A stretch of DNA of 64,000 nucleotides from Parcubacteria group bacterium. Its GTDB lineage: Bacteria > Patescibacteriota > Minisyncoccia > Phycocordibacterales > 21-14-all-47-15. Made by a program: the position numbers and the translations under genes. The stretch lies in contig JACOYO010000004.1 of assembly GCA_016181845.1 (NCBI GenBank), positions 15,827-79,826 of the forward strand, given 5' to 3'. Shown piece by piece: positions 9,796 to 48,252 of the stretch (positions are counted from its first letter, which is position 1; every line of letters begins with the position of its first letter). A model generated the notes under the pieces. It did no database searches. It was not told where the DNA came from and saw nothing but the letters and a program-made list of their open reading frames with translations.

Positions 9796-9868
9796 GGGCC
9801 CGTAGCTTAGTTGGTAGAGCGCCGCATTTGCAATGCGGAGGTCAGGAGTTCGAATCTCCTCGGGTCCA
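9796..9868 (+). tRNA. tRNA-Ala (anticodon UGC), no encoded CCA
   Basis: GGGCCCGUAGCUUAGUUGGUAGAGC...UUUGCAA...GGUUCGAAUCUCCUCGGGUCCA; G3:U70. Confidence 0.85.
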
Positions 9869-10006
9869 CAATTCTGAATTTTTTGAGCCGGACGGAAGCA
9901 TTTCGTACCGCTGAACTCGGAATACCTTGTCAAAACGAGTCTTTTTCAAAGAGTTGATATCCACATTGCATATATCAACTAAATAGCATATAATGTTGAT
10001 ATCCAT

Positions 10007-13384: not shown

Positions 13385-13988
13385 TATACAAAAAAAATCT
13401 GATGATGTAGTAATGGCAAATAAACATCAGGTGCACCTGCTTGATAATATTGATAAAGCTCAAAAATCCTTGAGCCTTTTTGAGTTATTGAGAAATAAAA
13501 AATTCACAACCGGCACAGTTAAGCAAGATAATTGGCTGGAGGAAATTTTACTTTCTTTTATTATTCTTAAAATACATACGGTTTTTGACAAAACCAGAGA
13601 TACTGTTTGTTTTGAGAATTTTCTTAAAAATAACGCTCAACATATCACAAAGAAAAAATATATAGAAGATATATCTAGTAAATTTGAAGCGTTAAAAACA
13701 AAACATAAAACACTTATTGAACAGATTAAAAATAATCGCCATGAATCAGTGGCGCATATTCCTAAAAAAACAAAACTTGGCGTAACCGAGAAAGTAGCAG
13801 TTAAAATAAGAGAATTTGGACATCAGATCGGCAGTGAAGATTATAAAAATCAAAAGTCAGTATCTGATGACAAAATGAGGTTTTCTGTTGGCAATTTTCC
13901 GATAGATAATGTAAAAGATTTAACAACAAAATTATTAAAACTTATTTTTGGAGTAAAATATCCTAAAACCATTGGTAAATTGATATGA
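13371..13988 (+). CDS. Hypothetical protein with an Rx5H HEPN-like motif (candidate RNase/abortive-infection effector) embedded in the Type I RM operon
   Basis: 205 aa, predicted helical, with the motif NNRHESVAHI (R-x5-H). Its stop overlaps the hsdS start as ATGA. Confidence 0.5.
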   Translation: MNTSNIQKKSDDVVMANKHQVHLLDNIDKAQKSLSLFELLRNKKFTTGTVKQDNWLEEILLSFIILKIHTVFDKTRDTVCFENFLKNNAQHITKKKYIEDISSKFEALKTKHKTLIEQIKNNRHESVAHIPKKTKLGVTEKVAVKIREFGHQIGSEDYKNQKSVSDDKMRFSVGNFPIDNVKDLTTKLLKLIFGVKYPKTIGKLI

Positions 13989-15178
13989 AAACTGACACAC
14001 AACAACAGAATATTCCGAACGGATGGCAACTCAAAAAACTGAGCGATGTTTTAGACTACGAGCGTCCAGATAAATATATTGTTAAAAGTAAAAGTTACAG
14101 CAATAAAGAAAAGACTCCAGTGCTCACAGCCAACAAGTCCTTTGTTTTAGGTTATACAGACGAAGATTTTGGTATTTATAGAAACTTGCCAGCAATTATT
14201 TTTGATGACTTTACAACTGACAGTAAACTTGTGAATTTCCCTTTTAAAATTAAGTCTTCGGCAATCAAAATTTTAAAAGAAAAAAATAAAGACATAGATT
14301 TGCGGTTTGTTTTTGAAAAAATGAAGTCAGTAACTTTTCCTACGGGAAGCCATAAACGCTTCTATATTTCACAGTACCAAAATTTAGAAATAGCCGTGCC
14401 TCCAATCAAAGAACAGCAAAAGATTGCGGAGATTTTGGGGGCGGTGGATGAGGATATTACTAAAACGCAGGAAGTGATTGAGGCGACAGAAAAGCTCAAG
14501 CGCGGATTGATGCAACAGCTTTTTACTCACGGGATTAGTCATACGAAATTCAAGGAAACAAAAATCGGACAAATTCCGGAATCATGGAGTATGGTGTCGG
14601 TTTCTGAAGTAGTAAAGAAAATCGTCGATAATCGCGGAAAAACTCCTCCACTTGCTTCGGATGGTATAGGGATAATTGAGGTTAATGCTATCGATAGCTC
14701 ACAAAAATATCCGAATTATTTGAAAATATCAAAATATGTAAGCCAAGAAACATACAATTCTTGGTTTAGAAGTGGTCATCCGGAAAAAGGAGATATTTTA
14801 ATACCAACAGTCGGGACAGTCGGCGTAGCTGTGATAATGAATGAAAACAAGGGATGTATTGCGCAGAATATTATTGCTGTTCGTGTAAAAGATACTATTT
14901 TACCGGATTTCTTTTATTATCTCGTCATAAGTCCTTTGTTCGTAGATCAAATTAGAAAAGTTTTAATGGGAGCTGTTCAGCCAAGTTTGAAAGTACCGCA
15001 TATGTTGGCGTTTAACATTCCATTACCGGCAAAGCCAGAACAACAAAAAATTACAGAAATTTTTTCCGCAGTCGATGAAAAAATCTCAGTCAATAAGAAA
15101 TTAAAAGAAAAACTTACTCTCCTCAAAAAAGGTCTGATGCAGGATTTGTTGAGTGGGAAAGTTAGGATAAATATATGA
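13985..15178 (+). CDS. hsdS: Type I restriction-modification specificity subunit S (two target-recognition domains)
   Basis: Duplicated TRD architecture with the conserved central and C-terminal helical repeats (KIAEILGAVDEDI... / KITEIFSAVDEKI...), typical of HsdS. Confidence 0.85.
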   Translation: MKTDTQQQNIPNGWQLKKLSDVLDYERPDKYIVKSKSYSNKEKTPVLTANKSFVLGYTDEDFGIYRNLPAIIFDDFTTDSKLVNFPFKIKSSAIKILKEKNKDIDLRFVFEKMKSVTFPTGSHKRFYISQYQNLEIAVPPIKEQQKIAEILGAVDEDITKTQEVIEATEKLKRGLMQQLFTHGISHTKFKETKIGQIPESWSMVSVSEVVKKIVDNRGKTPPLASDGIGIIEVNAIDSSQKYPNYLKISKYVSQETYNSWFRSGHPEKGDILIPTVGTVGVAVIMNENKGCIAQNIIAVRVKDTILPDFFYYLVISPLFVDQIRKVLMGAVQPSLKVPHMLAFNIPLPAKPEQQKITEIFSAVDEKISVNKKLKEKLTLLKKGLMQDLLSGKVRINI

Positions 15179-15856: not shown

Positions 15857-16723
15857 ATGAAAAAAGAAATCATACAATCACTGACCAATAATTTTGAATC
15901 ATACTCAAACAAGACAGAAAATGGGGTGGAGTTCTGGCTTGCGCGAGATTTGCAGCAACTTTTGGGGTATGACAAGTGGGACAACTTTTTAGGGGCTATC
16001 TCAAAGGCTAAAATAGCCTGTGAAAACACAGGTCACAAGGTAACCGATCATTTTGCCGACGCCGGGAAAACGATCCAAATGCCCAAGGGCGCTCAGAAGG
16101 AGATTTTGGACATAATGCTTACAAGATACGCTTGTTATTTGATTGCTCAAAACGGCGATCCAAGGAAAGAACAGGTAGCTTTTGCGCAAAACTACTTCGC
16201 GGTACAAACACGAAAGTTTGAAGTTATCGAGAAGCGCATACAGGATTCCGAGAGACTGCTAGCTAGATATAAATTGACCGAAACTGAGAAGAAGTTATCC
16301 GGTGTTATATTTGAGCAAACAGGAAGTGATAGAAATTTCGCGCTTATTCGGAGCAAGGGAGATAAGGCCCTATTCGGATATACCACGCAAGAAATGAAAA
16401 ACCGTCTTGGCGTTCCGGGGAGCCGAGCATTGGCGGATTTTCAACCGACAATTTTGCTCAAGGCAAAAGATTTTGCGACAGAGATCACCATTTTCAACTC
16501 AAAAGAAAAAGGATTGCGATCAGAACAATCTATTTCCGAAGAACATATCACAAATAATCGAAGTGTGAGAAAGACACTTTTGAGTCGGGGAATTACGCCT
16601 GAAAGATTGCCGGTGGAGGAAGATATCAAAAAGATTGAACGGAAACTTAAGTCCGAAGAGACTAAAGGTTTGAAGAAACCAGTTAAATTAAGAGAGGTAA
16701 ATGAAAAGGGGCCATCGTCCTAA
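15857..16723 (+). CDS. dinD: DNA-damage-inducible protein D homologue (DinD family)
   Basis: Collinear similarity to E. coli DinD: EFWLARDLQQLLGYDKWDNF, LTRYACYLIAQNGDP, YFAVQTR. Confidence 0.75.
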   Translation: MKKEIIQSLTNNFESYSNKTENGVEFWLARDLQQLLGYDKWDNFLGAISKAKIACENTGHKVTDHFADAGKTIQMPKGAQKEILDIMLTRYACYLIAQNGDPRKEQVAFAQNYFAVQTRKFEVIEKRIQDSERLLARYKLTETEKKLSGVIFEQTGSDRNFALIRSKGDKALFGYTTQEMKNRLGVPGSRALADFQPTILLKAKDFATEITIFNSKEKGLRSEQSISEEHITNNRSVRKTLLSRGITPERLPVEEDIKKIERKLKSEETKGLKKPVKLREVNEKGPSS

Positions 16724-16808: not shown

Positions 16809-19724
16809 ATGAAATTTAACGAACAAGTCACAGTAGAAAATTACATCATCAAGTTTATTAAAGATAAGCTTGGATTTGAGTACATAAAGCCAGAGGAATT
16901 TGCGAAATATCGCGAACTTGAGACGGAATACATTATAACTCCTCTTTTGGAGCGCGCTATTAGTACGCTGAATCCTACTGCGAACGAGAGTGAGATTAAA
17001 AATGTAATTCGCGAAGTGAGGAAGATTGATAATAACGAGGCATTTTTGAAAGCATTGCGAGATGGAATTAACCTCAAGAATTCCGTCACAGGCAAAAAGC
17101 ACGATTACAAACTGCTTGATTTTGATACTCCCGAGAATAATCAATTTGTTGTCACCAATCAATTCTATTTTGAGGGAGATACCGAAAATATCCGTCCCGA
17201 TATTTTGATTTTTGTGAACGGGCTTCCGCTTGTAGATATTGAGGCAAAAAGTCCAACGGCTTCGGAGGGAGTGAGTTTTGAAAATGGCATTGACCAGCTC
17301 AAACGATACGAGAAAGTAGCTCGAAAGTTGTTTATCCCGAACTGTTTCAATATTGCCAGTGATGGACTCAAAACTGTATATGGGGCAACGGGCGCGCCAA
17401 AGCAATATTTCCTACAGTGGCGAGATGACGATGTTGAGAAAGAGCTTGGTGGCGAGCTTGAGATGATGCTTTTCTCACTTCTCTCAAAGCAGAACTTTTT
17501 GGATATTGTTCAGAACTTTATTTTGTTTGAAAAAGAAAAGGAGAAATTGGTGAAGAAAATTGCTCGCTATCAGCAGATGCGAGCAACAAATAAAATTGTG
17601 GAGCGTGTAGTAAGCAAAGAGAAGCGACAAGGGCTTATCTGGCACACCCAAGGGTCCGGCAAGACACTCACAATGTATTTCACTGCGTGGAAACTACGCT
17701 TCAATAAACAGCTCGCTAATCCCAAGGTATTTATTTTGGTTGATCGGGTAGATTTGGACGACCAGATATTTGAGACATTTACCAATGCAGGTGGAAAAAA
17801 CATCGTTCGTGTCACTTCTCGAAAAGATTTGGAGGAAAAAATTCAATCACCGGAGAAAGGCATCTTCATCACGACCATTCAAAAGTTTTCTGAACTTGGC
17901 GACAAGGTAGAAAATCTTGATGAAAATGTGATTGTGCTTTCTGATGAGGCGCACCGAGGCGACGAAGGTGTATCGGGTATTAATATGCGAAATGCATTCA
18001 AAAAGGCATTCTTCTTTGGGTTCACCGGAACGCCAGTTGATAAAACACACACGAACACTTTCCGAAATTACGAAGGAGACGGAAAGCGATATCTAGACTA
18101 TTACTCTATCCAGCAAGCTATTGATGACGGAGCGACAATCCCAGTGACCTACGAGGCGCGACTTTCAAAGTTTTCTATTGATGAAGAAAAACTAGACCAG
18201 CAGTTTGAAGAAATTGCTGGCGATTTGCCTGATAAACAAAAGACCGAACTCGTTAAGAAATATGGCAAGAAAGCGGCGCTAGTAAAGCTTCCAAAGCGTA
18301 TGGAAGCCGTTGCCAGGGACATTGTGGAGCATTACAAGCTCTATGTGGAGCCGAACGGCTTTAAGGGGCAGGTCGTTCTGTATGACCGCGAAGCGGTAGC
18401 AACCTACAAAAAACTCCTTGATAAGCTCGTGCCTGCCGAGTGGTCGGCTGTGGTGTATTCACCCGGAGACCCAAATAGCGATGCGGATGATTTGAAAGTC
18501 TATAACACGAGCAAGCGTGAGCGTGAGCAAATCATTGAGAAATTCAAAGATCCAAAGTCATCACTCAAGTTTTTGCTCGTGTGCGACATGTTGCTCACTG
18601 GTTTTGACGCACCGATTGAGCAGGTGATGTATCTTGATAAGCCACTTCGCGACCATAACCTCTTGCAAGCTATCGCGCGTACGAATCGTGTCTATAAAAA
18701 TAAGGAAGCAGGAAAAATTATTGATTACTACGGAATCACACGCAACCTTTATGACGCACTTGATTTTGACGAAGATGTAGTTGATTCTGCGATGATTGAT
18801 ATTGATCGTGTGAAGGCACGATTTTCCGATGTCTTGAATGATGCAATAAAGATATTTACAGGAGTGAATATTGAAGACCCATCGATGAATAATCTTCGCC
18901 GATGTCTGAAGATTTTTATTGATAATCAAGATAAGCAAAAATACTTTATTGAGAAGTATATGAAGCTCAAGAGCTTGTTTGAGTTTCTTTCTCCTGACCC
19001 ATTTTTGAAGCAATATATTCGTCAGTTTGAATGGGTGACAAGTTTCTATTTGGCATTTTTGAAAGAATTCCGAAGTGAGGATGATAGATACTTACTTGAA
19101 GAATACGGTGAGAAAGTCCGTGAGCTAATACAAAAGAGCAATATCATTGACTACGAAGGAATCACAAAGAATTTCCGCGAGCTTCGTGTGAATGATTTGT
19201 ATACACTTGAGCGACTCAAAGGAATGGATGAGGAAGAAAAGGCACTCAATCTTGAGAAGATGCTCAAACAAGAGATATCAATCAATCTTGATGAAAATCC
19301 CACCTATCAAAAGTTTAGCGAACGACTAACCGCCATTCGCCGTGAGTTTGAACAAAATCAAATTGACCTTGCGGAACGAATTCGTCGATATGAGGAATTA
19401 ATGAAGGATATAAGGACGAAGGGAGACGAGGCAAAAGAGATGGGGCTCGATCTCAAAGAATACGCGCTCTATGTGATATCGCAAGAGTTTATTGAGGGCG
19501 GAAATATCGAGGACATCAAGGAGTTTGTAAAGGAGTTGCGAACCCGTATTGAGGATGAGCTGGACTCTGGTTGGCAAGAATCTTCAAAGCGAGATGTGTT
19601 TGTGAAAGATATTAAGCAAACATTGCAGGAGCTTATTTTACGCGATTACAAATGTCGATTTACTGTAAAAGACTTCCCGAAATTCTTGAATCGACTGGTG
19701 GACATAATCACTAAAAAATTCTAG
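16809..19724 (+). CDS. hsdR: Type I restriction enzyme R subunit (SF2 helicase-nuclease)
   Basis: 971 aa with helicase motifs I QGSGKTLT and II DEAHR, later SF2 motifs, and an N-terminal PD-(D/E)xK-type nuclease region (DILIFVNG...DIEAK). Confidence 0.9.
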   Translation: MKFNEQVTVENYIIKFIKDKLGFEYIKPEEFAKYRELETEYIITPLLERAISTLNPTANESEIKNVIREVRKIDNNEAFLKALRDGINLKNSVTGKKHDYKLLDFDTPENNQFVVTNQFYFEGDTENIRPDILIFVNGLPLVDIEAKSPTASEGVSFENGIDQLKRYEKVARKLFIPNCFNIASDGLKTVYGATGAPKQYFLQWRDDDVEKELGGELEMMLFSLLSKQNFLDIVQNFILFEKEKEKLVKKIARYQQMRATNKIVERVVSKEKRQGLIWHTQGSGKTLTMYFTAWKLRFNKQLANPKVFILVDRVDLDDQIFETFTNAGGKNIVRVTSRKDLEEKIQSPEKGIFITTIQKFSELGDKVENLDENVIVLSDEAHRGDEGVSGINMRNAFKKAFFFGFTGTPVDKTHTNTFRNYEGDGKRYLDYYSIQQAIDDGATIPVTYEARLSKFSIDEEKLDQQFEEIAGDLPDKQKTELVKKYGKKAALVKLPKRMEAVARDIVEHYKLYVEPNGFKGQVVLYDREAVATYKKLLDKLVPAEWSAVVYSPGDPNSDADDLKVYNTSKREREQIIEKFKDPKSSLKFLLVCDMLLTGFDAPIEQVMYLDKPLRDHNLLQAIARTNRVYKNKEAGKIIDYYGITRNLYDALDFDEDVVDSAMIDIDRVKARFSDVLNDAIKIFTGVNIEDPSMNNLRRCLKIFIDNQDKQKYFIEKYMKLKSLFEFLSPDPFLKQYIRQFEWVTSFYLAFLKEFRSEDDRYLLEEYGEKVRELIQKSNIIDYEGITKNFRELRVNDLYTLERLKGMDEEEKALNLEKMLKQEISINLDENPTYQKFSERLTAIRREFEQNQIDLAERIRRYEELMKDIRTKGDEAKEMGLDLKEYALYVISQEFIEGGNIEDIKEFVKELRTRIEDELDSGWQESSKRDVFVKDIKQTLQELILRDYKCRFTVKDFPKFLNRLVDIITKKF

Positions 19725-19729
19725 AAAGT

Positions 19730-20278
19730 ATGGAAAAGAAAATCTCATACAAACTCAAAAGAAGTAAAAGAGCAAAAAGGATGCGACTTGCCGTGTATTG
19801 TGATGGCAGTGTCGTTATCACAAGTCCTTTTGGGGCAGAGCAGTCGTTGATTGAAAAATTTCTCACTGATAAGAAGCAGTGGGTATGGGATAAAATTCAA
19901 TTTTTCAAAAGCGTTGATAGTAAAGCAATCCGCACATTCTCACACAAGGACTATTTAGAAAATAAAGATAAGGCGCTTGCTCTCGTGCATGAACGGGTGA
20001 GATTTTATAATAAAATTTACGGATTTTCTTTCAATAAAATCTTTATTAAAAATCAAAAGACCCGTTGGGGTAGCTGTTCGTGCAAGCAAAATCTAAATTT
20101 GAATTACAAAATAGTGTTTTTGCCAGAGAAACATCAGGATTATATTATCGTGCACGAAATGTGTCATTTGAAGGAGTTTAATCATTCAAGAAAATTCTGG
20201 GCGCTTGTGGAGAAGGTTCTTCCTAATTATTTAGATATTAAGAAAGAGCTTCGCAATCATGAGTTGTTTTATAAATAA
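19730..20278 (+). CDS. YgjP/DUF45-type zinc metallopeptidase (WLM/SprT-like), commonly linked to Type I RM loci
   Basis: HEMCHLKEFNHSRKFW (an HExxH...H zincin-like motif); starts 5 nt after hsdR. Confidence 0.7.
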   Translation: MEKKISYKLKRSKRAKRMRLAVYCDGSVVITSPFGAEQSLIEKFLTDKKQWVWDKIQFFKSVDSKAIRTFSHKDYLENKDKALALVHERVRFYNKIYGFSFNKIFIKNQKTRWGSCSCKQNLNLNYKIVFLPEKHQDYIIVHEMCHLKEFNHSRKFWALVEKVLPNYLDIKKELRNHELFYK

Positions 20279-26246: not shown

Positions 26247-27392
26247 ATGGCTTTGGGAATCGGCATCGTTGGTTTACCGAACGTGGGGAAGTCCACGCTT
26301 TTTAACGCGCTTACCAAAAAATCGGTGCCGGCGGAAAATTATCCTTTTTGCACAATTGATCCTTCGGTGGGCGTGGTTGCTGTGCCGGACCTACGGCTTT
26401 CTAAACTTTCGACATTGTCAAAATCTGCAAAAACAATTCCCGCGGCGATAGAATTTGTGGATATTGCGGGATTGGTGAAAGGCGCTTCAGCGGGCGAGGG
26501 ATTAGGAAATAAATTTTTGGCGAATATCCGCGAAGTAGATGCCATTTTGGAAGTGGTGCGGATTTTTCCCGCCCAAGGCGGGTCCGCCTCGGGCGGAGAC
26601 GTTGTTCATGTATATGGAGAGATAGACCCAATGAGAGATATTGAAGTTATCAATCTTGAATTGATGATGGCGGATTTAGAGACGGTTACAAAAAGACTTG
26701 GAAATTTAGAAAAAGATGTGAAACGTGGAGACAAAGATGCTTTGGATGAAAAAGAAGTCCTTGAAAAAATTGCCGCGACACTAGAGGCCGGGAAGCTCGC
26801 GAAAGATATTTTCCAAAATGTTGAAAATGTTGGACATCCGATGTCCAACATTGAAGGAGTGGTTAAAAAACTTCATTTACTTACCATGAAGCCGATTTTA
26901 TACGCGCTCAACAAAAAATCCGGAGCAAAAAATCTTGATGAAGCGAAAGATGAACGCTGGGAGAAGCTCATGCGGTTTTTCAAAGATAAGAACGCTCAAT
27001 ATGTCATTTTTGACGCGAAGGTGGAAGACGAGCTGAAAGAATTTGCCGGAGAAGAAAAAGAAACATTTCGCAGAGAGCTTGGCGCAGAAGAGGGCGACGG
27101 GATAGACGCGCTTATTTCCGCAAGCTATACGTTGCTCGGATTGATTACTTATTTTACGACCGGTGAAGACGAAACGCGCGCGTGGACGATTAAAAAAGGA
27201 TGGACGGCGCCCGAGGCAGGCACGGCGATTCATACCGACTTCAAAGATAAATTTATTCGCGCTGAAGTGATTTGGTGGCAAGATTTGCTCACTGCCGGTT
27301 CTTATGTTGTTGCTAGAGAAAAAGGGCTTCTTCGCACCGAGGGCAAGGATTACATTGTGCAAGACGGAGATGTAATTGAATTTAAGATTTAG
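26247..27392 (+). CDS. ychF: Ribosome-binding ATPase YchF (Obg-like GTPase family)
   Basis: G1 GIVGLPNVGKSTLFNALT and the C-terminal TGS domain. It contains an in-frame copy of palindrome family P2 at 26826-26852. Confidence 0.9.
   Translation: MALGIGIVGLPNVGKSTLFNALTKKSVPAENYPFCTIDPSVGVVAVPDLRLSKLSTLSKSAKTIPAAIEFVDIAGLVKGASAGEGLGNKFLANIREVDAILEVVRIFPAQGGSASGGDVVHVYGEIDPMRDIEVINLELMMADLETVTKRLGNLEKDVKRGDKDALDEKEVLEKIAATLEAGKLAKDIFQNVENVGHPMSNIEGVVKKLHLLTMKPILYALNKKSGAKNLDEAKDERWEKLMRFFKDKNAQYVIFDAKVEDELKEFAGEEKETFRRELGAEEGDGIDALISASYTLLGLITYFTTGEDETRAWTIKKGWTAPEAGTAIHTDFKDKFIRAEVIWWQDLLTAGSYVVAREKGLLRTEGKDYIVQDGDVIEFKI
26826..26852. repeat. Family P2 palindrome AATGTTGGACAT-CCG-ATGTCCAACATT lying inside the ychF coding sequence
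   Basis: The same palindrome (with its spacer inverted) as the intergenic copies at 38472-38494 and 61353-61379. Here it encodes NVGHPMSNI. Confidence 0.55.
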
Positions 27393-30423: not shown

Positions 30424-32169
30424 CTATTTTTCCAGAGAAATCATCTGAATAAATTTTTCTATTGGCATTTGTCCAAGCGAGCCGCCATCACGGCTTTCAA
30501 CAGTGACAGCCAGCGAAGCTTTTTCTTTGTCGCCTACGACTAATAGATAGGGAATTTTTTGCAGTTTTGCGTTTCTGATTTTTTTGCCCAACGTTTCATT
30601 GCTTTCGTCAAGCATAGCGCGAGCGCCCGATATTTTCAATTGCTCATGTACTGATTGCGCGTAGGAAAGATGCGCTTCGCTGATAGGGATGATGATTGCC
30701 TGCACAGGAGCAAGCCAGACTGGGAAATTGCCGGCGAAATGTTCAATAATGACCGACAGGAATCGTTCAATAGAGCCGGCAACCGCGCGGTGAATCATGA
30801 CGGGCGTTTTTTTCTTGCCGTCTTTGTCGTTGTATTCCAAACCGAATCGCGCGGGCATATTGAAATCAATCTGAATGGTCGCCAATTGCCACTCTCGTCC
30901 GATGGCATCTTTAAACATGAAATCAAGTTTTGGTCCGTAGAATGCCGCCTCACCTTCAATCCGTTTGTACGGGAGCTTTTCTTCTTTTGCGACTTTTTCA
31001 AGCATATGCTCGGCGGTATCCCAGTTTTTGGCATCGCCCAAATATTTTTCTGGAAGCTTCGGGTCGCGTACCGAGAGCGACACCCAATATGAATCTTTTT
31101 CAAACATACCGAGCGAAGTGTAAAACTCGCGTATAACTGTCACGATATTTTTTGCCTCCGTTTCCACTTGGCCAATCGCGCAAAATACATGGCCGTCGTC
31201 TTGCGTGAGCGAGCGGACACGCGAGAGCCCCAAAAGCTCGCCCGGCTGTTCGTCGCGGTAGTTGGTAGTCACTTCCATGAAGCGCACCGGTAAATCTTTG
31301 TAACTTCTCTGCGCCGAAGCATAAATCTGCGTGTGGTGCGGGCAATTCATCGGCTTCATCACGAATTCCGCGTCTCCTTTGCCTTTGACATGAAAGAGGT
31401 CGTCACGGAATTTATCCCAATGGCCAGATGTTTGGTAGAGTTCTTTTTTGGCGATGTGAGGAATCCACACGCGCTCATATCCGAAGCGTATTTGAATGCT
31501 ACGGATTTTTTCGGCAATGACATCGCGAATGATGGTCCCTTTGGGGGTGAATAAGGGAAGCCCGGGACCTACCAAATCAGAGAAGGTGAAAAGCCCCAGT
31601 TCTTTTCCGATTTTTCGATGGTCGCGTTTTGCCGCTTCCTCGCGGAATTTTTTATATACATCAAGCGCTTCTTTGTTTTCAAACGCAAGCCCGTAGATGC
31701 GCGTGAGCATTTTGTTTTTCTCGTCGCCGCGCCAATATGCGCCGGCGATATGCGAAAGTTCAAATGCGTCGGTATTTATTTCTTTTGTATTGGCAACATG
31801 CGGCCCTTCGCAGAGGTCGGTAAAATCGCCGGTTTTATAAACAGTGATTTTTTCGCCCGCTTTTGCAAATTCATCTATGAGTTCTAATTTATACGGCTCA
31901 TTTTTGAAAAATGCCCGAGCTTCTTTTTCATCAAGCTCTTCTTTTTTGAAATCAAGATTTGATGAAGCCGATTTCTTCATCTGCTTTTGCAAATCTTTCA
32001 AATCTTTGTCCGCAGGAGCTTCTCCTCCTGAGAAATCAAAATCGTAATAGAAACCGGTATCAATGACCGGACCGATGGCGAGCTTCGCGTGCGGATATTT
32101 TTTCTTTACCGCGATGGCGAGCATGTGAGAAAGCGAATGGCGGATGTTGTAGAGGTTGTCGTTCCGCAT
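30424..32169 (-). CDS. thrS: Threonine--tRNA ligase lacking the N-terminal TGS domain
   Basis: The second additional domain with HxxxH/CxxxH (RHSLSHM, CEGPHV), the class II core (RDHRKIGKELGLF, FRGL motif, HRAVAGSIERF) and the anticodon-binding domain; 581 aa. Confidence 0.9.
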   Translation of the reverse strand: MRNDNLYNIRHSLSHMLAIAVKKKYPHAKLAIGPVIDTGFYYDFDFSGGEAPADKDLKDLQKQMKKSASSNLDFKKEELDEKEARAFFKNEPYKLELIDEFAKAGEKITVYKTGDFTDLCEGPHVANTKEINTDAFELSHIAGAYWRGDEKNKMLTRIYGLAFENKEALDVYKKFREEAAKRDHRKIGKELGLFTFSDLVGPGLPLFTPKGTIIRDVIAEKIRSIQIRFGYERVWIPHIAKKELYQTSGHWDKFRDDLFHVKGKGDAEFVMKPMNCPHHTQIYASAQRSYKDLPVRFMEVTTNYRDEQPGELLGLSRVRSLTQDDGHVFCAIGQVETEAKNIVTVIREFYTSLGMFEKDSYWVSLSVRDPKLPEKYLGDAKNWDTAEHMLEKVAKEEKLPYKRIEGEAAFYGPKLDFMFKDAIGREWQLATIQIDFNMPARFGLEYNDKDGKKKTPVMIHRAVAGSIERFLSVIIEHFAGNFPVWLAPVQAIIIPISEAHLSYAQSVHEQLKISGARAMLDESNETLGKKIRNAKLQKIPYLLVVGDKEKASLAVTVESRDGGSLGQMPIEKFIQMISLEK

Positions 32170-32302
32170 AGATTATATAGTATCATTTATGCCAAAAATC
32201 TCGAAGGGGTTGACAGTTCTAATTACCCATGTTACACTTGAAAAAATCTTGTAGTTGTTTGAGAACATAAAAATAACACTATTTTTTGGAAAGGGGCAGT
32301 AT

Positions 32303-32713
32303 ATGGAGCTTATTGGCATACTTGGTCTTGGTTTCGGCGCACTCGTTTTTTTTATTATATTTATGATAGATGACAAGCCTTGTGGGGTTCAGGAGAGAAT
32401 CCTGGCAGGGGTAAACCAATGCGGTATCTGTCAAAAAAAAGGCGAGGCAAGAAAGGGATATATCCTCGACTATGATTGGGATGGTCCAAGCGCAGTCTCT
32501 TATGTGCATGAAGAGTGTCTGGCATCCGTCAAAAGAAATCCTGAAAAATTTGACAAATCGACGGTAATTTTTGTCAACAGGATTTTCAGTGCGAGTGCGT
32601 TGGAGCAAAGTAGTGAGGAAGATTTTTCAGAAGATTTTTCACAGTATTTGGCGAGAATCTGGGGTAAGAGCCCGGAAGGAATAAGGAGGGGTGGAGTTTT
32701 ACCCCAGTCATAG
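32303..32713 (+). CDS. Hypothetical protein with an N-terminal TM helix and a possible Cys4 zinc-ribbon
   Basis: The start is set at MELIGILG (RBS aaagggg). Cysteines CGV...CGIC...EEC. Confidence 0.45.
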   Translation: MELIGILGLGFGALVFFIIFMIDDKPCGVQERILAGVNQCGICQKKGEARKGYILDYDWDGPSAVSYVHEECLASVKRNPEKFDKSTVIFVNRIFSASALEQSSEEDFSEDFSQYLARIWGKSPEGIRRGGVLPQS

Positions 32714-32725
32714 TACCTAAAATTT

Positions 32726-32770
32726 AGCCTCATTTGTTTTGTTTTGAAACAAATGAGGCTTTTATTTTTT
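32726..32770 (+). terminator. Rho-independent terminator
   Basis: 11-bp stem agcctcatttg/caaatgaggct followed by a T-run. Confidence 0.6.
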
Positions 32771-32788
32771 AATTTTTTAATGTTATTT

Positions 32789-32886
32789 TTACAACTCTTT
32801 CACCGCTTCGGTGATGAGCGATAGCTCGTCGTTTCGGTCTGAAAGACGGCCTTTGATAACGACGCATTTGTCGGGCGTGAGCATGC
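32789..32886 (-). pseudogene. Diverged duplicate of the dnaE 3' end (last ~32 codons plus the stop)
   Basis: About 84% identical to 33602-33699; its reverse complement translates to ...PDKCVVIKGRLSDRNDELSLITEAVKEL*. Confidence 0.6.
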
Positions 32887-32992
32887 GCGCGAAAAGATGT
32901 TTATCTAGTCTAGAGCTTTTAATATCCCAGAATAGTGTCGACACTATTCGGTGGATTATTTTGTTTAATTGAATTCAGGGTACCACATGATA

Positions 32993-33020
32993 TTGACAAA
33001 ATAATATTTTCATATATAAT
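32993..33020 (+). promoter_or_regulatory. Near-consensus sigma70 promoter inside the cassette
   Basis: TTGACA, a 16-nt spacer and TATAAT. Confidence 0.45.
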
Positions 33021-33092
33021 AACACTCAGATTTTGCGACAGTTAGTTGAAAATAATAACCCCACTTAATTCATAAGCAAAAGGAGGATCGCA

Positions 33093-33533
33093 ATGTTTCA
33101 GTTAGAAAGTTCGTTAAATGATGGTGATAGAAGAAGTGCGTTGTTTGAGTGTTTTGAGAACATATTGAGCTTAGCGATTTTTCTTTCTGTTTGTCGTGTG
33201 TTATATGGTCTTTGCACTGAAGAATACTCAACTTCTTTTAATGGGGTAGCGCCAATAAATATTATTGATGGTTTTGCTGCTCTAACACTTTTTTTCTGTG
33301 TATTCATTATTCCAATTTTGCTGTTAGTAAATGCACTAATCATTTTGATAATAGATTTACCAAAACAGCTTATCGCAATTTGGAAAAAATCCGGAGTCAA
33401 TAACATAGTGATTGAATGTATGGTTGTGTTTATGGTGTTGCTATTGATCCATCCTTTTTTTTGGAGTACACCATGGTTGTATCTTGCGGCTTATGATATA
33501 TGTTGGTTTTTTGCTTGGAGGGTCATAACGTGA
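33093..33533 (+). CDS. Hypothetical small membrane protein encoded by the cassette between the dnaE 3' repeats
   Basis: 146 aa, 4 TM, very AT-rich codon usage. A terminator follows at 33543-33590. Confidence 0.5.
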   Translation: MFQLESSLNDGDRRSALFECFENILSLAIFLSVCRVLYGLCTEEYSTSFNGVAPINIIDGFAALTLFFCVFIIPILLLVNALIILIIDLPKQLIAIWKKSGVNNIVIECMVVFMVLLLIHPFFWSTPWLYLAAYDICWFFAWRVIT

Positions 33534-33601
33534 CCCTCAAAAAAAGCCCTTGTCACTAAGAAGACATAAGGGCTTTTTCTTTTATGAAAATCATCACGAC
33601 G

Positions 33602-36600
33602 TTACAACTCTTTCACAGCTTCGGCGATGATAGAGAGTTCGTCGTTCCTGTCAGAAAGACGGCCTTTGATAACTACGCATTTGTCTGGCGCGAGCATCAT
33701 TTTATATTCTGTAAAAGTGCGCGGGAATACGACTGCCTCTATGGTTCCGCTAAAGTCGGCAAATTTCAAAAACACCATACGCTCGCCTTTTTTGGTGACC
33801 ACTTCGCGCGCTTCTTCAATGATACCGCCGATAATCACTTGCGCGCTAGTGGAGCCCGCCTCTCTTAATTGTTTAATGCTGGTGCCGCTTTTTTCTAATC
33901 GTTCGCGATATTTTTCAAGCGGATGACCGGAGATATAGAGCCCGAGCAATTCTTTTTCCCACCCCAATTTTTCTTCATTTGAAATAGGAGGCGTGTTTTT
34001 GAGAGTGAGTCCGGGTATAGATGAATCGCTCTCCATCAAACCAAAAAGCGATTCTTGCGAAGCCGAGTGCTGTAAAGATGCGCGGTTGTAGACGAGCGCT
34101 TCTTCAATATTCCCAAAAAGTGAGCCGCGTTCTCCAAGCGTGTCCATGGCGCCCGATTTTACCAGCGCTTCAAGCGATTTCTTGTTCAAATTTTTATGCT
34201 TCACGCGGTCAAGAAAATTGGAATATGAAATAAAGGCGCCCGATTTTTTTCGCTCGGCGATGATGGCGTCAGCGATATCTTGACCCAAGTTTTTGATTGT
34301 GTACAGCCCAAAGCGGATGGCATCGCTGGCCGTGGTTTCTCCTTTGATGGCTGTAAAATCTCCGAAGCTTTCGTTGATGTCTGGCGGAAGCACTGGAATT
34401 TTCATCCGCTGGCACTCATGGATGATTTCGGCAATTTTTTCCACGTCGCCTGATTCTGCGGTAAGGACGGCGGTCATGTACTCGGTCGGGAAATTCGCTT
34501 TCATGTAGGCGGTTTGATAAGCGACGAGCCCGTAGCTGACCGAATGCGCTTTATTGAAGCCGTATGCGGCAAACGGCTCAATCCACGACCATATTTGCTC
34601 GGCTTTTTTCTTGCTCCAGCCGCTGGTCTTGATGCAGCCGTTGATAAATTTATCTTTCTGCGCCTGCATTTCTTCGGGGATTTTTTTACCGACGGCTTTT
34701 CTGAATTTATCTATTTCAAGCCATGAGTATCCGGCAAGCTCCCGCGCCATAACGAGCAGGTCGTCTTGGTATACTAAAATCCCGTAGGTTAGTTTCAAGA
34801 TTTTTTCCAGCGCTGGGTCGAGATAGCGGATGAGCTCCGGATTGTGTTTGCGCGCGATGTAGTCGGGGATAAACTGCATCGGACCCGGGCGGTAGAGCGC
34901 CACCATGGCGTTGATGTCGTGGATCGTGGTCGGTTTCAATTCTTTCAAATATCGCGTCATGCCGGAGCCGTTCAATTGGAAAAGCCCCATGGTTTCTCCG
35001 CGCGCGAGCATCTTGAATGTTTTTGGGTCGTCGAGCGGAATGTGCTCAATATCAATATCAGCATCACAGAATTTTTTTGTAAGACGAACCGCGTCCGAAA
35101 GAATGGAAAGGTTTCTAATTCCCAAAAAATCAAATTTTAGGAGCCCCGCGTCTTCTATTGAATACATGTCGTACTGCGTGATAATTTTTCCACCTTTGGG
35201 GTCAAATTGGAGCGGCGCAAATTCGGTGAGCGGAACTGGAGAAATGACGACGCCCGCGGCGTGAATAGAAATATGGCGGGCGCACCCTTCGATTTTTTTT
35301 GCCAAGTCAATGATTTCTTTGGTAGTGGTATCTTCTTTGTATAATGTTGCGAGTTCAGGCGTGATTTCCAACGCATGGTCAATCGTCATCGGGAATCCCT
35401 GTGAGCCCATGGGGATGAGTTTTGCAATTTTATCTCCCACCACATACTCATGTCCGAGCGAGCGGGCGATGTCGCGCACAGAACCGCGCGCCATCATTGT
35501 GCCGAATGTGCCGATTTGCGCGACGCGGTCTTCGCCGTATGTTTTTTTTACATATGTAAGCATTTCGTCGCGGCGATTGTCGGCGAAGTCCATATCAATA
35601 TCAGGCGCCGAAGGGCGTTCCGGATTCAAAAATCGTTCAAACGGAATTTTATACTCCAGTGGATTGACATTAGTTATGCCGGTAAGATAAGTGACGAGCG
35701 AACCGGATACCGAACCTCTGATGTTTGTCAAAATATGATTTTCCCGCGCGTACCGGAGGAGGTCAGACACCACAAGAAAATAGGGCGCGTAACCTTTATC
35801 GCGGATAATTTTTAATTCATACTCAATACGTTCTTTTACCTCGTCTGTTTCGCCGACACCGCGTTTCGTAAGCCCGCCATAGGCAAATTCACGCAATTTT
35901 TGGTCGTAGCTAACGCCGTCTTCAATCGGCAAATCAGGAAACACCCATTTGCCGAGCTCAAGCGTCACATTGGCGCGGTCTGCGATGCGGCCGGTGTTTT
36001 CTATCGCATCGGGAATGTTGCCGAAATATTCTCTCGCTTGCGCTTCGGAAATAAACGAGGTGTCAACATCGCCAATCTGCATGTCGGCCAAGTCGCGGCT
36101 TGATTGAATGGCGAGCATGGTATCGCGCGCGCGCTTATCTTCTGGATTCAAATAATAAAAATCTTGCGCCGCGACGATAGGTATTCCTATTTTTTTTCCG
36201 AGTTCTGTCAATTTTTTTTGTACTTCCTCATGACCTTCTATTTCCGGATGATGGGTTATCTCAAAAAAATAATTGCCGGAGCCGAAAATTTGGAGATGTT
36301 CTCTCGCGACTTGCTCGGCTTTCTCCCAATCGTTGTTGCGGAGCGCGCGCGACACCTCTCCGCCGAATGTGCCTGAAAGACAAATCAATCCTTCATGATA
36401 TTTTTGTAGGAGTTCTTTATCAATGCGTGGCTTGTAGTAGTAACCCTCAAGGTGGGATTGGGTGACGAGTTTGAGTAGATTTTTATAGCCGATATTGTTC
36501 TCTGCCAAAAGCACCAGATTGAAACGACGGTTGTCGACGCCCGCCTGCTTGTCGTGGCGACTGCGGACTGCAACATACGCGTCAATACCGAAAATCGGTT

Positions 36601-36784
36601 TTATGTTTTCTTCTTTGCATTTTTTATAAAACTCAATCGCTCCGTAGAGATTGCCAAGGTCGGTCAGCGCGATGGCATCCATGTTTTCTTTTTTTGCGCG
36701 CCGGACAATCTCTGGTATTTTTGGCAAGGCTTGGAGGAGGGAATAGTGGGAATGGGTATGGAGATGTACGAAGCGTGAAGCCAT
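33602..36784 (-). CDS. dnaE: DNA polymerase III alpha subunit
   Basis: 1060 aa with an N-terminal PHP domain (HLHTHSHYSLL), the polymerase core and a C-terminal OB fold. Confidence 0.9.
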   Translation of the reverse strand: MASRFVHLHTHSHYSLLQALPKIPEIVRRAKKENMDAIALTDLGNLYGAIEFYKKCKEENIKPIFGIDAYVAVRSRHDKQAGVDNRRFNLVLLAENNIGYKNLLKLVTQSHLEGYYYKPRIDKELLQKYHEGLICLSGTFGGEVSRALRNNDWEKAEQVAREHLQIFGSGNYFFEITHHPEIEGHEEVQKKLTELGKKIGIPIVAAQDFYYLNPEDKRARDTMLAIQSSRDLADMQIGDVDTSFISEAQAREYFGNIPDAIENTGRIADRANVTLELGKWVFPDLPIEDGVSYDQKLREFAYGGLTKRGVGETDEVKERIEYELKIIRDKGYAPYFLVVSDLLRYARENHILTNIRGSVSGSLVTYLTGITNVNPLEYKIPFERFLNPERPSAPDIDMDFADNRRDEMLTYVKKTYGEDRVAQIGTFGTMMARGSVRDIARSLGHEYVVGDKIAKLIPMGSQGFPMTIDHALEITPELATLYKEDTTTKEIIDLAKKIEGCARHISIHAAGVVISPVPLTEFAPLQFDPKGGKIITQYDMYSIEDAGLLKFDFLGIRNLSILSDAVRLTKKFCDADIDIEHIPLDDPKTFKMLARGETMGLFQLNGSGMTRYLKELKPTTIHDINAMVALYRPGPMQFIPDYIARKHNPELIRYLDPALEKILKLTYGILVYQDDLLVMARELAGYSWLEIDKFRKAVGKKIPEEMQAQKDKFINGCIKTSGWSKKKAEQIWSWIEPFAAYGFNKAHSVSYGLVAYQTAYMKANFPTEYMTAVLTAESGDVEKIAEIIHECQRMKIPVLPPDINESFGDFTAIKGETTASDAIRFGLYTIKNLGQDIADAIIAERKKSGAFISYSNFLDRVKHKNLNKKSLEALVKSGAMDTLGERGSLFGNIEEALVYNRASLQHSASQESLFGLMESDSSIPGLTLKNTPPISNEEKLGWEKELLGLYISGHPLEKYRERLEKSGTSIKQLREAGSTSAQVIIGGIIEEAREVVTKKGERMVFLKFADFSGTIEAVVFPRTFTEYKMMLAPDKCVVIKGRLSDRNDELSIIAEAVKEL

Positions 36785-36823: not shown

Positions 36824-36958
36824 TCTTTCTTCGTCATATATTTTTGATAGACGCGCATTCCGCCCTGGGCGGATGCCATGCTCCTCCGACAGTATCGTCG
36901 GGGTCCGCAATGTCTCTCAAAAATTATGATTCAGAGCGAGTTTTGTAATCTTAGATAA
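36824..36958. mobile_element. MITE-like element, copy 1 (terminal inverted repeats CAAAACTC / GAGTTTTG)
   Basis: Shares the framework ...aaaactct..tttttgatagacgcgcat.c-[hairpin]-...cgcaatgtctctcaaaaa.tatgatt...gagttttgtaat with 40684-40822. Its internal hairpin is ccgccctgggcgg. Confidence 0.5.
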
Positions 36959-38387: not shown

Positions 38388-38471
38388 AGCATCCAAGCAA
38401 GACCTAATGCGCCACGGAATGATGTCCCGTGGCGTTTTTTTATCCCACTATTCCACAAGGCAAAACCTAAT

Positions 38472-38494
38472 TGTTGGACATCGGATGTCCAACA
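38472..38494. repeat. Family P2 palindrome TGTTGGACATCGGATGTCCAACA upstream of rpmF
   Basis: Perfect palindrome. Confidence 0.55.
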
Positions 38495-38547
38495 TATGTT
38501 GTAATCGGGTTGCGTATTTTTTCAAAACAGGTTATGATATAAAAACT

Positions 38548-45429: not shown

Positions 45430-46059
45430 ATGAGAATTACAGAACTTCCAACTATGGATCGTAAAGTCGTTAAGGATCTGAAAATTGCACTTAAGGATTT
45501 TGAACGGCTGGTAAAAAACCCTCAATTCCTCTGGAATGGGCGAGAGTTTACGAATTTTAGTTTGCGACCACGCGAAGCATGGGCTAATTGGCTTGTATGT
45601 GTTGTTTTGCGCAAAATACACGGGAGGGATATTAGCTTTATGGAGGATAACGAGGGGGACGGATTTATTGTTGATAGAGAGCTGGGACTTGCTTTTCAAA
45701 CGGAGCACGTATCAGCACTTAACGTTCCGAAAGGAAAGCAACTGCCTGATGGAGAGCAACGAGTGCTGGACGCTATAAATCTAAAAATTGCACGGGGCCG
45801 CGACTATGCACACGAAAAGCTACTTGTCGTTTTCTTCGATGGTGCCGGTCAGTTCTTCAGGAGCAAAATCCGCGAGAATATCTTTGGACGACACGATTTC
45901 GAAGCGGTGTTTTGTGTTGGTCTATTGGATTCGGGTCCGAATGGTTATTCCTATTCGATTACTGAATTTAGAGATTCCTTCGGTCATCAATCCGTAACCC
46001 ATAAAGTGGAAATAGACATAGATTTTAGTGATTGGAAAATAACGCAAATCATGCAGTAA
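45430..46059 (+). CDS. Hypothetical protein (209 aa)
   Basis: Longest ORF in the region, with an upstream GGAG. I know of no assignable family. Confidence 0.5.
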   Translation: MRITELPTMDRKVVKDLKIALKDFERLVKNPQFLWNGREFTNFSLRPREAWANWLVCVVLRKIHGRDISFMEDNEGDGFIVDRELGLAFQTEHVSALNVPKGKQLPDGEQRVLDAINLKIARGRDYAHEKLLVVFFDGAGQFFRSKIRENIFGRHDFEAVFCVGLLDSGPNGYSYSITEFRDSFGHQSVTHKVEIDIDFSDWKITQIMQ

Positions 46060-46335: not shown

Positions 46336-47058
46336 ATGAACAAGGAAGAACAAAAAAATTCCGATGCAGCGATTGAATATGTGAAAAAACACAGTGATGA
46401 AATTATACAAAAATTTGCCAGCATCAAAACGTTTCCACTAAGTGAATATCCAGTGTCAGTGTTTATGGCGGGCTCTCCCGGGGCTGGGAAGACAGAATTC
46501 TCACAAGAAGTGTTGGATGTGTGGTTTGGGGACTCCGACATACAAGATGCGGTGCGTATTGACCCGGACGAAGTGAGGAAAATAATCCCTGGTTATGATG
46601 GTACTAATGCGTATCTTTTCCAGGCAGCTGTTTCTGTGGGTGTGGAAAAGATACATGATAGTGTTCTAAAATATGGACAAAACTTTATTCTTGATGGTAC
46701 ATTATCTATATTTAAAAAAGCAAAAGAAAATATTCAGCGTTCCATTGATAAACATAGATTAGTTTTTATTTTTTACATATATCAAGACCCTCTGGTAGCA
46801 TGGGCGTTTACCAAAGAGAGGGAGGTCAAAGAGGGGCGTAAAATTCCAAAGCAAGCTTTTATAGAACAATTCTTTGGTGCCAGGGATTCAGTAAATCAAA
46901 TTAAGGAATATTTCGGTGACAAAATTAAAGTATATTTGGTGGAAAAAAATTTTGAAAATAAGATTCAAAAAATAATGATAAATATAACAAAAATTGACTC
47001 CCATATATCATTTGGTTATAATAAAGAAACTCTTACAAAAGCATTGAAAAATATATGA
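46336..47058 (+). CDS. P-loop kinase of the zeta-toxin / AAA_33-like family
   Basis: Walker A FMAGSPGAGKTEF near residue 40 and a downstream ILDGTLS motif, in a ~240-aa protein. This is the zeta/PezT-like architecture. Confidence 0.5.
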   Translation: MNKEEQKNSDAAIEYVKKHSDEIIQKFASIKTFPLSEYPVSVFMAGSPGAGKTEFSQEVLDVWFGDSDIQDAVRIDPDEVRKIIPGYDGTNAYLFQAAVSVGVEKIHDSVLKYGQNFILDGTLSIFKKAKENIQRSIDKHRLVFIFYIYQDPLVAWAFTKEREVKEGRKIPKQAFIEQFFGARDSVNQIKEYFGDKIKVYLVEKNFENKIQKIMINITKIDSHISFGYNKETLTKALKNI

Positions 47059-48053: not shown

Positions 48054-48138
48054 GAAAAACTCTTTCTGAATCATAGTTTTTGATAGACGCGTATTCCGCC
48101 CAGGGCGGATGCTCTGCTCGAAACACTATTTTGTAATT
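48054..48138. mobile_element. MITE-like element, copy 3 (internally truncated)
   Basis: aaaaactctttctgaatcatagtttttgatagacgcgtattccgcccagggcggatgctctgctcg...attttgtaat; it lacks the cgcaatgtctctcaaaaa segment. Confidence 0.45.
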
Positions 48139-48140
48139 AA

Positions 48141-48217
48141 GACGTCCGACCTCTGGGTTGGTAAAATATCGGCATTTGCCACAAATAAAATAATTACCAC
48201 ATCAGAGGTCGGACGTC
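48141..48217. repeat. Family P4 long-hairpin element, copy 2, directly upstream of dnaK
   Basis: gacgtccgacctctg-ggttggtaa-aatatcggcatttgccacaaataaaataa-ttaccacat-cagaggtcggacgtc. Its arms differ from copy 1 by compensatory changes (T:A to C:G). Confidence 0.55.
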
Positions 48218-48252
48218 TTACATAAAGTAAATAAATAATTGATAAAAAACGT

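Follow-up and report, generated by a model that had tools for sequence, protein, structure and literature searches.

We analysed a 64,000-nt stretch (here called the window) of contig JACOYO010000004.1 from a Parcubacteria group bacterium, in which the end of dnaE, the gene for the alpha subunit of DNA polymerase III, is present twice (Table 1). The initial annotation had described an approximately 98-bp repeat of the dnaE end, about 84% identical, that encloses a promoter, an open reading frame (ORF) of 146 amino acids (aa) with four membrane segments and a strong terminator, and had read the arrangement as the footprint of an element that entered the 3' end of the gene and brought a replacement terminus. 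The repeat is real, with 84 of 96 nt identical (87.5%; 32789-32884 versus 33602-33697) or, over the full 98-nt span (32789-32886 and 33602-33699), 14 mismatches (85.7%). The enclosed features are all present as well, including the ORF, here called orf146, with its approximately four membrane segments predicted from hydropathy. Insertion with a replacement dnaE terminus was borne out by the synonymous divergence of the two copies, by an empty junction in outgroups, by derived codons that the distal copy shares with sister lineages, and by the foreign composition of the inserted DNA.

Table 1. Features of the dnaE-thrS region of the window and duplicated gene tails at other loci (L numbers denote fetched loci; positions are those of the respective locus).
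Locus	Feature	Position	Strand	Remarks
Window	thrS, conserved gene ancestrally directly after dnaE	30424-32169	minus	Order rnhB-dnaE-thrS
Window	orf152 (called as 136 aa from 32303), older accessory gene of the dnaE-thrS slot	32255-32713	plus	Homologue in L091
Window	Bidirectional terminator hairpin after Td and orf152, older native context	32726-32760		16-bp stem, T run
Window	Td, probable displaced native dnaE tail (31 codons plus stop), in-frame relic	32789-32886	minus	Derived codons in common with L084 and L091
Window	Non-dnaE part of the inserted DNA (715 nt; with Ta, a unit of 813 nt)	32887-33601		Absent from outgroup loci
Window	Perfect 20-nt palindrome GAATAGTGTCGACACTATTC near the distal insert end	32930-32949		Unique in the window
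Window	Cassette promoter TTGACA-16-TATAAT, 5' untranslated region and Shine-Dalgarno sequence	32993-33086	plus	Sigma-70 consensus 12/12; -35 at 32993-32998, -10 at 33015-33020; AAGGAGG at 33080-33086, 6 nt 5' of ATG
Window	orf146, hydrophobic 146-aa protein, convergent to dnaE	33093-33533	plus	ORF list, hydropathy
Window	Predicted bidirectional intrinsic terminator common to dnaE and orf146	33540-33579		Hairpin with A run and T run
Window	Ta, tail now attached to dnaE (last 31 codons plus stop)	33602-33699	minus	Encodes ..LSIIAEAVKEL
Window	dnaE (DNA polymerase III alpha, 1060 aa)	33602-36784	minus	Pfam PHP, DNA_pol3_alpha, finger, HHH_6, OB-fold
Window	dnaE tail repeat, 31 codons			Stop-to-stop 813 nt; orf146 cassette between
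L095	dnaE tail repeat, at least 24 codons	198-1445	minus	Stop-to-stop 1221 nt; secreted protein and fused HicB-HicA between
L097	dnaE tail repeat, 20 codons	993-1860	minus	Stop-to-stop 865 nt; HicB and HicA between
L052	dnaE tail repeat	9190-9326		Stop-to-stop 95 nt; no cargo
L116	dnaE tail repeat	9259-9395		Stop-to-stop 95 nt; no cargo
L152	dnaE tail repeat	6050-6186	minus	Stop-to-stop 95 nt; no cargo
L120	dnaE tail repeat, 7 codons		minus	Stop-to-stop 107 nt; no cargo
L027	thrS tail LLALLQKEIKEKK-stop	Stop at 6530	plus	Copies 1288 nt apart; two AT-rich ORFs; 30% GC versus 41-43% in flanks
L054	gyrB tail SNAKMARLDI-stop		minus	Copies 113 nt apart; 10 synonymous differences
L074	GAPDH-like gene tail		minus	Copies 461 nt apart; 125-aa ORF with multiple transmembrane segments between
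L044	183-aa ORF tail		minus	Copies 1020 nt apart

The two copies are direct repeats in the same orientation, spaced 813 nt apart, and we refer to the copy attached to dnaE as Ta and to the distal copy as Td. Homology between them begins at an ATG CTC codon pair and ends exactly at the TAA of each, with a local alignment score ~41 standard deviations above that of shuffled sequences and a longest shared identical run of 20 nt. Translation of Td gives MLTPDKCVVIKGRLSDRNDELSLITEAVKEL and that of Ta MLAPDKCVVIKGRLSDRNDELSIIAEAVKEL, each followed by a stop. The dnaE end is repeated only once within the window, and no second copies of other gene ends were found there. As the C-terminal OB-fold of DnaE spans residues 983-1059 (Pfam), the duplicated tail falls within a folded domain.

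The 12 nucleotide differences between Ta and Td lie at third (eight) and first (four) codon positions and never at second positions, and the changed codons comprise eight synonymous changes and three conservative replacements (T/A, L/I, and T/A). Thus, 3 of 11 changed codons are nonsynonymous where 8.5 would be expected under random substitution, and three or fewer occurred in 0.02% of simulations. Near-exclusively synonymous differences of this kind (P ~0.0002) mark two functional dnaE alleles and rule out a duplicate that decayed in place; Ta and Td therefore diverged while each formed the working end of a dnaE gene.

Relatives were gathered with a full-length DnaE search, which yielded two sisters (L084 and L091) as well as outgroups; a 249-aa query from the DnaE C-terminus recovered no more than short fragments (59% identity or lower) and failed to retrieve the full-length protein that is 96% identical. 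The dnaE gene of L084, a Candidatus Lloydbacteria metagenome-assembled genome, is 96% identical to that of the window in amino acids and 91.4% in nucleotides, and that of L091, a Logan contig, is 82.6% identical in nucleotides. In the closest outgroups (DnaE 72 to 75% identical in amino acids), thrS follows dnaE after 31, 111, and 132 nt, so that the 1433 nt between the two genes in the window represent additions. The initial annotation had pointed to the dnaE 3' ends of related genomes as the place to look for the ancestral junction; in the comparison, the outgroup dnaE-thrS junction is the empty site, and the duplicated arrangement was not seen as an ancient conserved feature. Of 80 Paceibacteria loci, ~45 keep the order rnhB-dnaE-thrS, and the gap is often as small as 16 to 100 nt.

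Judged from these alignments, the dnaE-thrS spacer acts as a slot of variable gene content, filled with different small cargo in the sisters. The window carries orf146, L084 carries an ORF of 159 codons (orf159), L091 carries two small ORFs, and the outgroups carry nothing, with no mobility genes in any of them, as in the slots described for minimal mobile elements. The two ORFs that follow dnaE in L091 are hydrophobic and unrelated; they are succeeded by a hairpin and a homologue of orf152, as in the window, with no tail duplicate. The gene orf152, whose L091 homologue lies at 7033-7383, is absent from the outgroups and has no family match in Pfam, PHROG, or PADLOC. The accompanying hairpin folds at about -20 kcal/mol on both strands in the window, and its L091 counterpart lies at 6896-6930. 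On the thrS contig of the L084 genome, another gene takes the place of orf152, and the spacers of other Paceibacteria hold orphan ORFs, a MazF-like toxin, or pilin-like genes.

Comparison with the sisters also bears on which copy is native. Td has four derived sites in common with L084 and L091 (CTC ATC ACC, TCG, and GCG), including Leu-Ile-Thr, and the sisters read ..LSLITEAVKEL; Ta encodes Ile-Ile-Ala, like outgroups L085, L087, and L090. The 4 nt after the stop are AAAT for Td, AAAT for L084, and TAAT for L091 versus CGTC for Ta, and Td together with the 28-nt spacer downstream of it aligns contiguously with the L084 tail and its downstream sequence (83% over 132 nt). Td differs from the L084 tail at 10 of 96 nt, the gene-wide mean being 8.3 per 96 nt; with only about two changes of its own, Td would have been displaced recently. 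These comparisons support the view that Td is the native tail and that at least the 3' half of Ta came with the insert. In the middle of the repeat, the pattern is reversed, with Ta sister-like (AGG, TCT) and Td outgroup-like (CGA, TCA). If a crossover is placed at nt 51 to 63, the reconstructed native tail differs from L084 at 8 of 96 nt and the foreign tail at 14 of 96, and such a mosaic is suggestive of a reciprocal crossover inside the tail.

The 715-nt part of the insert is compositionally foreign: its guanine-plus-cytosine (GC) content is 34.0%, versus 47.8% for dnaE, 46.6% for thrS, and 43.6% for the window. Its predicted terminator folds at -25.7 kcal/mol on the minus (dnaE) strand (z = -5.0) and at -17.5 kcal/mol on the plus (ORF) strand (z = -4.0). 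The palindrome GAATAGTGTCGACACTATTC folds at -13.9 kcal/mol (z = -4.4), with zero chance matches expected at three or fewer mismatches, and it may be an operator or a recombination-related hairpin, both of which are only candidate roles. It holds TAGTGTCGACAC, which is related to a motif, AGTGTCACC-N6-GGTTAACT-N4-5-GGGG, that the sister genome has (L084, 95-136; L092, 80-120) just 5' of the cassette promoter and of the thrS promoter; this may be a site for a common regulator. There is no inverted repeat at the insert ends, and an Rfam search over positions 31500-34500 returned nothing above noise. An insertion sequence or miniature inverted-repeat transposable element was rejected on the lack of terminal inverted repeats and on the flanking repeat, which is 96 nt long and 12% diverged and not a short identical duplication. 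An integron cassette was likewise rejected.

The cargo gene, orf146, shares the unusual composition, with 31% GC at third codon positions versus 54% in dnaE. Searches of Pfam, PHROG, and PADLOC gave no match at E values of 0.1 to 1 or below and did not place it among holins, toxins, or immunity proteins, and its AlphaFold model (predicted local distance difference test score of 51) was unusable. Among 5.8 billion clustered proteins, the only match was orf146 itself, and among 1.84 billion representative proteins, its sole relative was P0122 (159 aa, 29 to 31% identical in amino acids). P0122 is the product of orf159, which lies in sister L084 at the same site, directly after dnaE and convergent to it, with a GC content of 31%. 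The L084 cassette keeps the same -35 and -10 boxes, and the sequence surrounding them has diverged. Since flanks that are 91% identical surround a gene that is only 30% identical, the two ORFs are different alleles of one cassette family in the same slot rather than products of vertical descent. The initial annotation had raised the prospect of homologues flanked by dnaE-like repeats or integrases: one relative does lie at a dnaE end, but the L084 contig ends 225 nt upstream of orf159 with no tail relic in those 225 nt, and no integrase-bearing element was found. In our search for orf146 itself, it occurred in this genome only and in no distant strain, so the exchange that characterizes minimal mobile elements was not seen for this gene. 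Our guess is that the orf146 product is an accessory or defence-type protein that is associated with the envelope and subject to diversifying selection.

The absence of an integrase, as originally described, was upheld. When essentially every window ORF of 110 aa or more was scanned against Pfam, no integrase, transposase, relaxase, or reverse transcriptase was found; the matches were to housekeeping genes, to an island of type I restriction-modification, Fic, and AbiU2-like genes, and to a zeta toxin. No recombinase was present in the dnaE-thrS gaps of eight other lineages or in L097. The insert has no similarity to phage families (PHROG), no viral contig contained the dnaE tail when searched with the peptide or a degenerate pattern, no homologous element with an integrase was found, and a literature search for dnaE as an attachment (att) site returned nothing relevant.

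Duplicated dnaE tails also occur outside the window. A degenerate tail pattern (I-x-EAVKEL-stop) matched 65 loci in metagenome contigs, three of them with two matches on the same strand. Over metagenome and genome loci combined, and with the window included, a second downstream tail copy was present at 7 of ~112 distinct dnaE tails. In the six other cases (L052, L095, L097, L116, L120, and L152), the copies differ only synonymously, including switches between the TCN and AGY codons of Ser and between the CGN and AGR codons of Arg. Repeat lengths vary among the cases (7, ~17, 20, at least 24, and 31 codons), and the 5' boundaries differ too. In L095, the second tail copy is directly followed by a TTGACA promoter and a structured leader 5' of thrS; a motif in this leader, GGTGGAACCGCG, resembles a T-box but was not confirmed by Rfam. 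Rfam searches of L052, L095, L116, and L152 gave nothing at the gathering score.

In L052, L097, L116, and L152, a conserved GC hairpin, GCTTGCCCGTCCGTAGCTTYAGCGAAGGCGGGG, interrupts the displaced tail, always at the same position, between Asn and Gly codons, and it was found nowhere else in 157 loci. L052 and L152 differ from each other at 3 of 45 nt in this hairpin with its flank and at 10 to 11 of 39 nt in both tails, where all changes are synonymous. All five displaced tails of the L052 clade encode a perfect EPSI(I/V)IEAVKEL-stop despite 8 to 14 nt differences. They do not group as a separate clade: nearest to them are functional tails from other genomes, and they are as close to functional tails as functional tails are to each other. 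A close relative, L099, has an empty site, and no decayed tail was seen beside the GCTTGCCCGTCCGTAGCTTYAGCGAAGGCGGGG hairpin. The displaced tails either turn over so fast that only fresh ones are seen or are kept by selection. Among viral contigs, one, the unrelated high-GC L158 (IMGVR_UViG_3300050821_006144), has the hairpin motif, with ~30/33 identity by eye, in both arms of a long inverted repeat (3680-3880). The motif may be a generic sequence resembling repetitive extragenic palindromic (REP) elements.

Scars of this type are not confined to dnaE. A scan of the last 10 residues plus stop of 1469 ORFs of at least 150 aa from all fetched loci revealed duplicated tails at thrS, gyrB, a GAPDH-like gene, and a 183-aa ORF (Table 1). 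In the unbiased genome set, scar rates were ~1% for dnaE and ~0.5% for other genes, the latter a rough estimate assuming about ten genes per locus. Because the rates are similar, a single att site in dnaE does not explain the scars, and a generic homology-anchored process fits them. The L074 cargo and the gene next to it looked like paralogues, an idea that was rejected on comparison. An apparently perfect tail duplication in L004 (minus strand, ~9700-9865 in plus-strand coordinates) was discarded as an assembly artefact, since a scaffold gap (a run of N) is flanked there by 34 identical nt.

With moderate confidence, we explain the window locus by homology-anchored insertion, either Campbell-type or similar to homology-facilitated illegitimate recombination (HFIR), of a relative's DNA into a variable gene slot. 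The segment, 813 bp long and derived from a related Paceibacteria lineage, would have entered at the 3' end of dnaE, bringing a dnaE tail copy of ~96 nt, the terminator, an orphan membrane-protein gene with its strong promoter, and ~100 nt past the promoter. Donor DNA in which a conserved gene end adjoins an accessory gene would recombine through that gene end, by one reciprocal crossover with a donor fragment that is circular or has circularised (Campbell-type insertion-duplication) or by homologous exchange on one side and an illegitimate join on the other, slightly upstream of the recipient stop (the HFIR-like route). The product of either route would read gene, donor tail, cargo, recipient tail, and old downstream sequence; the incoming tail would complete dnaE, the native tail would move 813 nt downstream, and a dedicated integrase would be unnecessary. 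In the laboratory, circles that bore a truncated lacZ end produced duplications of 109 to 950 bp by single crossover, and HFIR needs homology at one anchor only, with 3 to 10 bp of microhomology at the illegitimate junction (PMC3240628). Natural competence, with homologous recombination as the route of integration, is documented for Saccharibacteria (PMC10633639). As the last 31 codons belong to the DnaE OB fold, only insertions that restore them would be viable, and selection would set the shape of the scar: truncations of the OB fold would be lethal, long duplications would be unstable, and joins past the stop would not duplicate the tail, which would account for L084 and L091. What we infer here is how the DNA recombined, where it came from, that it was taken up by competence, and what orf146 may do.

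Several points weigh against this explanation. No donor sequence was found against which the junction at 32886/32887 could be compared for microhomology. A 98-bp anchor at ~88% identity is a poor RecA substrate. The mosaic of the tails rests on few sites and gains only two substitutions over a model in which Td is native throughout. The two orf146 family members known so far, in sister genomes, are each located at the end of dnaE, an arrangement that would also fit a site-specific cassette, and the conserved GC hairpin that always lies beside the displaced tail in the L052 clade could be a recombination site. Finally, natural competence has been shown in Saccharibacteria (PMC10633639) and not in this lineage.

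It is possible, although we think it unlikely, that the insert is a remnant or non-autonomous member of a family of site-specific integrative elements, resembling a cis-mobilizable element (CIME). A tyrosine or serine recombinase encoded elsewhere would then have recombined an attP holding the dnaE tail with the dnaE end on the chromosome, leaving the two tails as attL and attR. Repeats that rebuild the target gene are a signature of integrative elements and of their decayed CIME forms (PMC5704250), and in the window, Ta completes dnaE and Td is displaced, as expected of attL/attR-type flanking repeats; however, no core is recognisable in them, the longest identical run being 20 nt, and repeat length and 5' boundary vary by lineage, though perhaps because different element families are involved. 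Both orf146 family members lie at the dnaE end and dnaE tail duplications occur in at least seven lineages, yet the same scar is found at thrS, gyrB, and other genes. A conserved hairpin accompanies the displaced tail in L052, L097, L116, and L152, a palindrome occupies the equivalent end of the window insert, and HicAB, an addiction module of the kind typical of selfish cargo, is carried elsewhere; but no recombinase was found among ORFs of at least 110 aa in the 64 kb or in the comparable loci, descent from an integrase-bearing element could not be traced, no phage family matches, and no viral contig has the tail. Integrative and mobilizable elements (IMEs) and CIMEs in the 3' ends of housekeeping genes (PMC5704250) share with the window case the direct repeats, one of which completes the target, as well as the lack of an internal integrase, small cargo, and accretion. 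They differ from it in that the window insert has no homology to a known element, no nearby recombinase, no defined core, and repeat boundaries that vary by lineage, with the same type of scar at many target genes.

The initial annotation had likened the insert to elements that target tRNA or tmRNA genes. The replacement terminus withstood the comparison, whereas integrase-driven targeting of dnaE did not, given the missing recombinase, the repeats of 7 to 31 codons, and the scars at thrS and gyrB. Islands and prophages at tRNA and tmRNA genes likewise bring a replacement 3' end for the interrupted gene; unlike them, the window insert has a protein-coding target, with constraint at the amino acid level only and synonymous recoding, and it measures 0.8 kb versus 10 to 100 kb and has no phage or integrase genes.

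A bolder and quite doubtful extension of homology-anchored insertion is that Paceibacteria carry recombinase-free mobile cassettes equipped with the synonymously recoded last 7 to 30 codons of a conserved host gene (dnaE, thrS, gyrB, or others) and cycling via tail recombination. Such a cassette would loop out between the tail copies, reach a second cell as DNA, and re-enter by Campbell-type crossover in the homologous tail, so that the essential gene would never be broken. The circle junction of the window cassette would then read ..CTTTTCGCGCGC, then the tail, then CGTCGTGATG... The cargo-less hairpin units of 95 to 107 nt would be the minimal form of these cassettes or else a functional module through which selection maintains the displaced tail.

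Selection on the distal copy, which might be translated, otherwise used, or able to regain function upon loss of the insert, seems improbable to us as an explanation. The five displaced tails of the L052 clade are intact and none beside the hairpin has decayed, but recent displacement explains this equally well, and detection with an intact motif is biased to intact copies. The hairpin is more conserved than the tails (3/45 versus 10-11/39 differences), yet the displaced tails have no start codon or open frame leading in, with stops just upstream, and their frame relative to dnaE varies (offsets 0, 1, and 2). Td itself has no promoter or ribosome-binding site and is positioned past the dnaE terminator. 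More improbable still is that the dnaE end was locally duplicated in tandem, that the copies then diverged, and that the ORF was acquired afterwards. The common orientation of the direct repeats and their spacing of only 813 nt would suit such an origin, but a decaying copy would change at all codon positions, contrary to what was observed (P ~0.0002); moreover, Ta keeps outgroup residues lost in both sisters, the intervening DNA is foreign, and orf146 and orf152, compared as a check for paralogy, show no similarity. The least credible account is an assembly artefact joining strain variants, or a diversity-generating retroelement: the genome is metagenome assembled and the repeats, ~88% identical, lie at a gene 3' end, but the window is matched at 100% identity, over both copies and both junctions, by assemblies of three separate Logan runs, which, with no run longer than 20 nt for graph switching, excludes an artefact. 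A retroelement is ruled out by differences that are synonymous and involve all bases and not adenine specifically, and no reverse transcriptase was found among the window ORFs of at least 110 aa.

For the insertion by homology that we favour, the nearest described systems include the minimal mobile elements of Neisseria (Saunders and Snyder 2002), in which the cassette between two conserved genes varies and is exchanged although it has no mobility genes (PMC3787668). Like them, the dnaE-thrS slot holds different whole-gene cassettes in the closest relatives and no mobility genes, and exchange would presumably proceed, once DNA is taken up, by homologous recombination in the flanks. Unlike them, the window has a duplicated gene tail, so that one junction falls within the neighbouring gene and there was no clean double crossover, the host belongs to the Paceibacteria of the candidate phyla radiation (CPR), and exchange from strain to strain is deduced. 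In Campbell-type and HFIR events (PMC3240628), a truncated gene end similarly recombines to leave an insert flanked by a direct duplication of 0.1 to 1 kb; those experiments used laboratory plasmids and defined fragments, whereas here the anchor is only 98 bp long and 12% diverged, and the product is fixed in a natural population. The scar is thus a variant of insertion-duplication scars, minimal mobile elements, and decayed integrative elements in a little-studied phylum.

A synonymous-only duplicated tail around small cargo is a sequence signature with which recent acquisitions and their donors can be sought in metagenomes. CPR bacteria (Patescibacteria) have tiny genomes with few recognisable mobile elements, and their routes of gene gain are mostly obscure. 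The present locus suggests that the ends of essential genes can serve as safe landing pads through plain homologous recombination, and the scars that related bacteria bear at the ends of other genes are a hint that genes can be gained with no dedicated integrase. The phenomenon is broader than the window case, in that synonymous tail duplications occur at several essential genes and include cargo-less 95-nt units; if cassettes do cycle without a recombinase, this would be a distinct mode of mobility. The dnaE-thrS spacer itself is a hypervariable slot, and its cargo (an orphan membrane protein, HicAB, and secreted proteins) provides candidates for envelope, defence, and host-interaction functions.

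Elsewhere in the window, five tRNA genes (9243-9869) are followed by a defence-type island that reaches 20278. The island comprises Fic (10007-11197), HsdM (11317-13026), HsdS (13985-15178), and HsdR (16809-19724), with an AbiU2/HEPN-like ORF (13371-13988), a Bro-N ORF (15857-16723), and a YgjP-like peptidase (19730-20278) interposed. An ORF of the zeta-toxin family (46336-47058) is preceded by an unannotated 209-aa ORF (45430-46059), and the two may be a toxin-antitoxin pair. The window also contains dispersed repeats, among them a 79-nt self-complementary element present twice (2065-2143 and 48140-48218, 89% identical), a palindrome, TGTTGGACATCGGATGTCCAACA, in three copies, and intergenic GC-rich hairpins of the CCGCCCWGGGCGG type. 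Apart from the 79-nt element, the repeat families lie at 26819-26860, 38463-38504, and 61346-61387, at 36841-36883 and 48077-48119, and at 6406-6447 and 26565-26606. These dispersed repeats look like REP-like elements or terminators.

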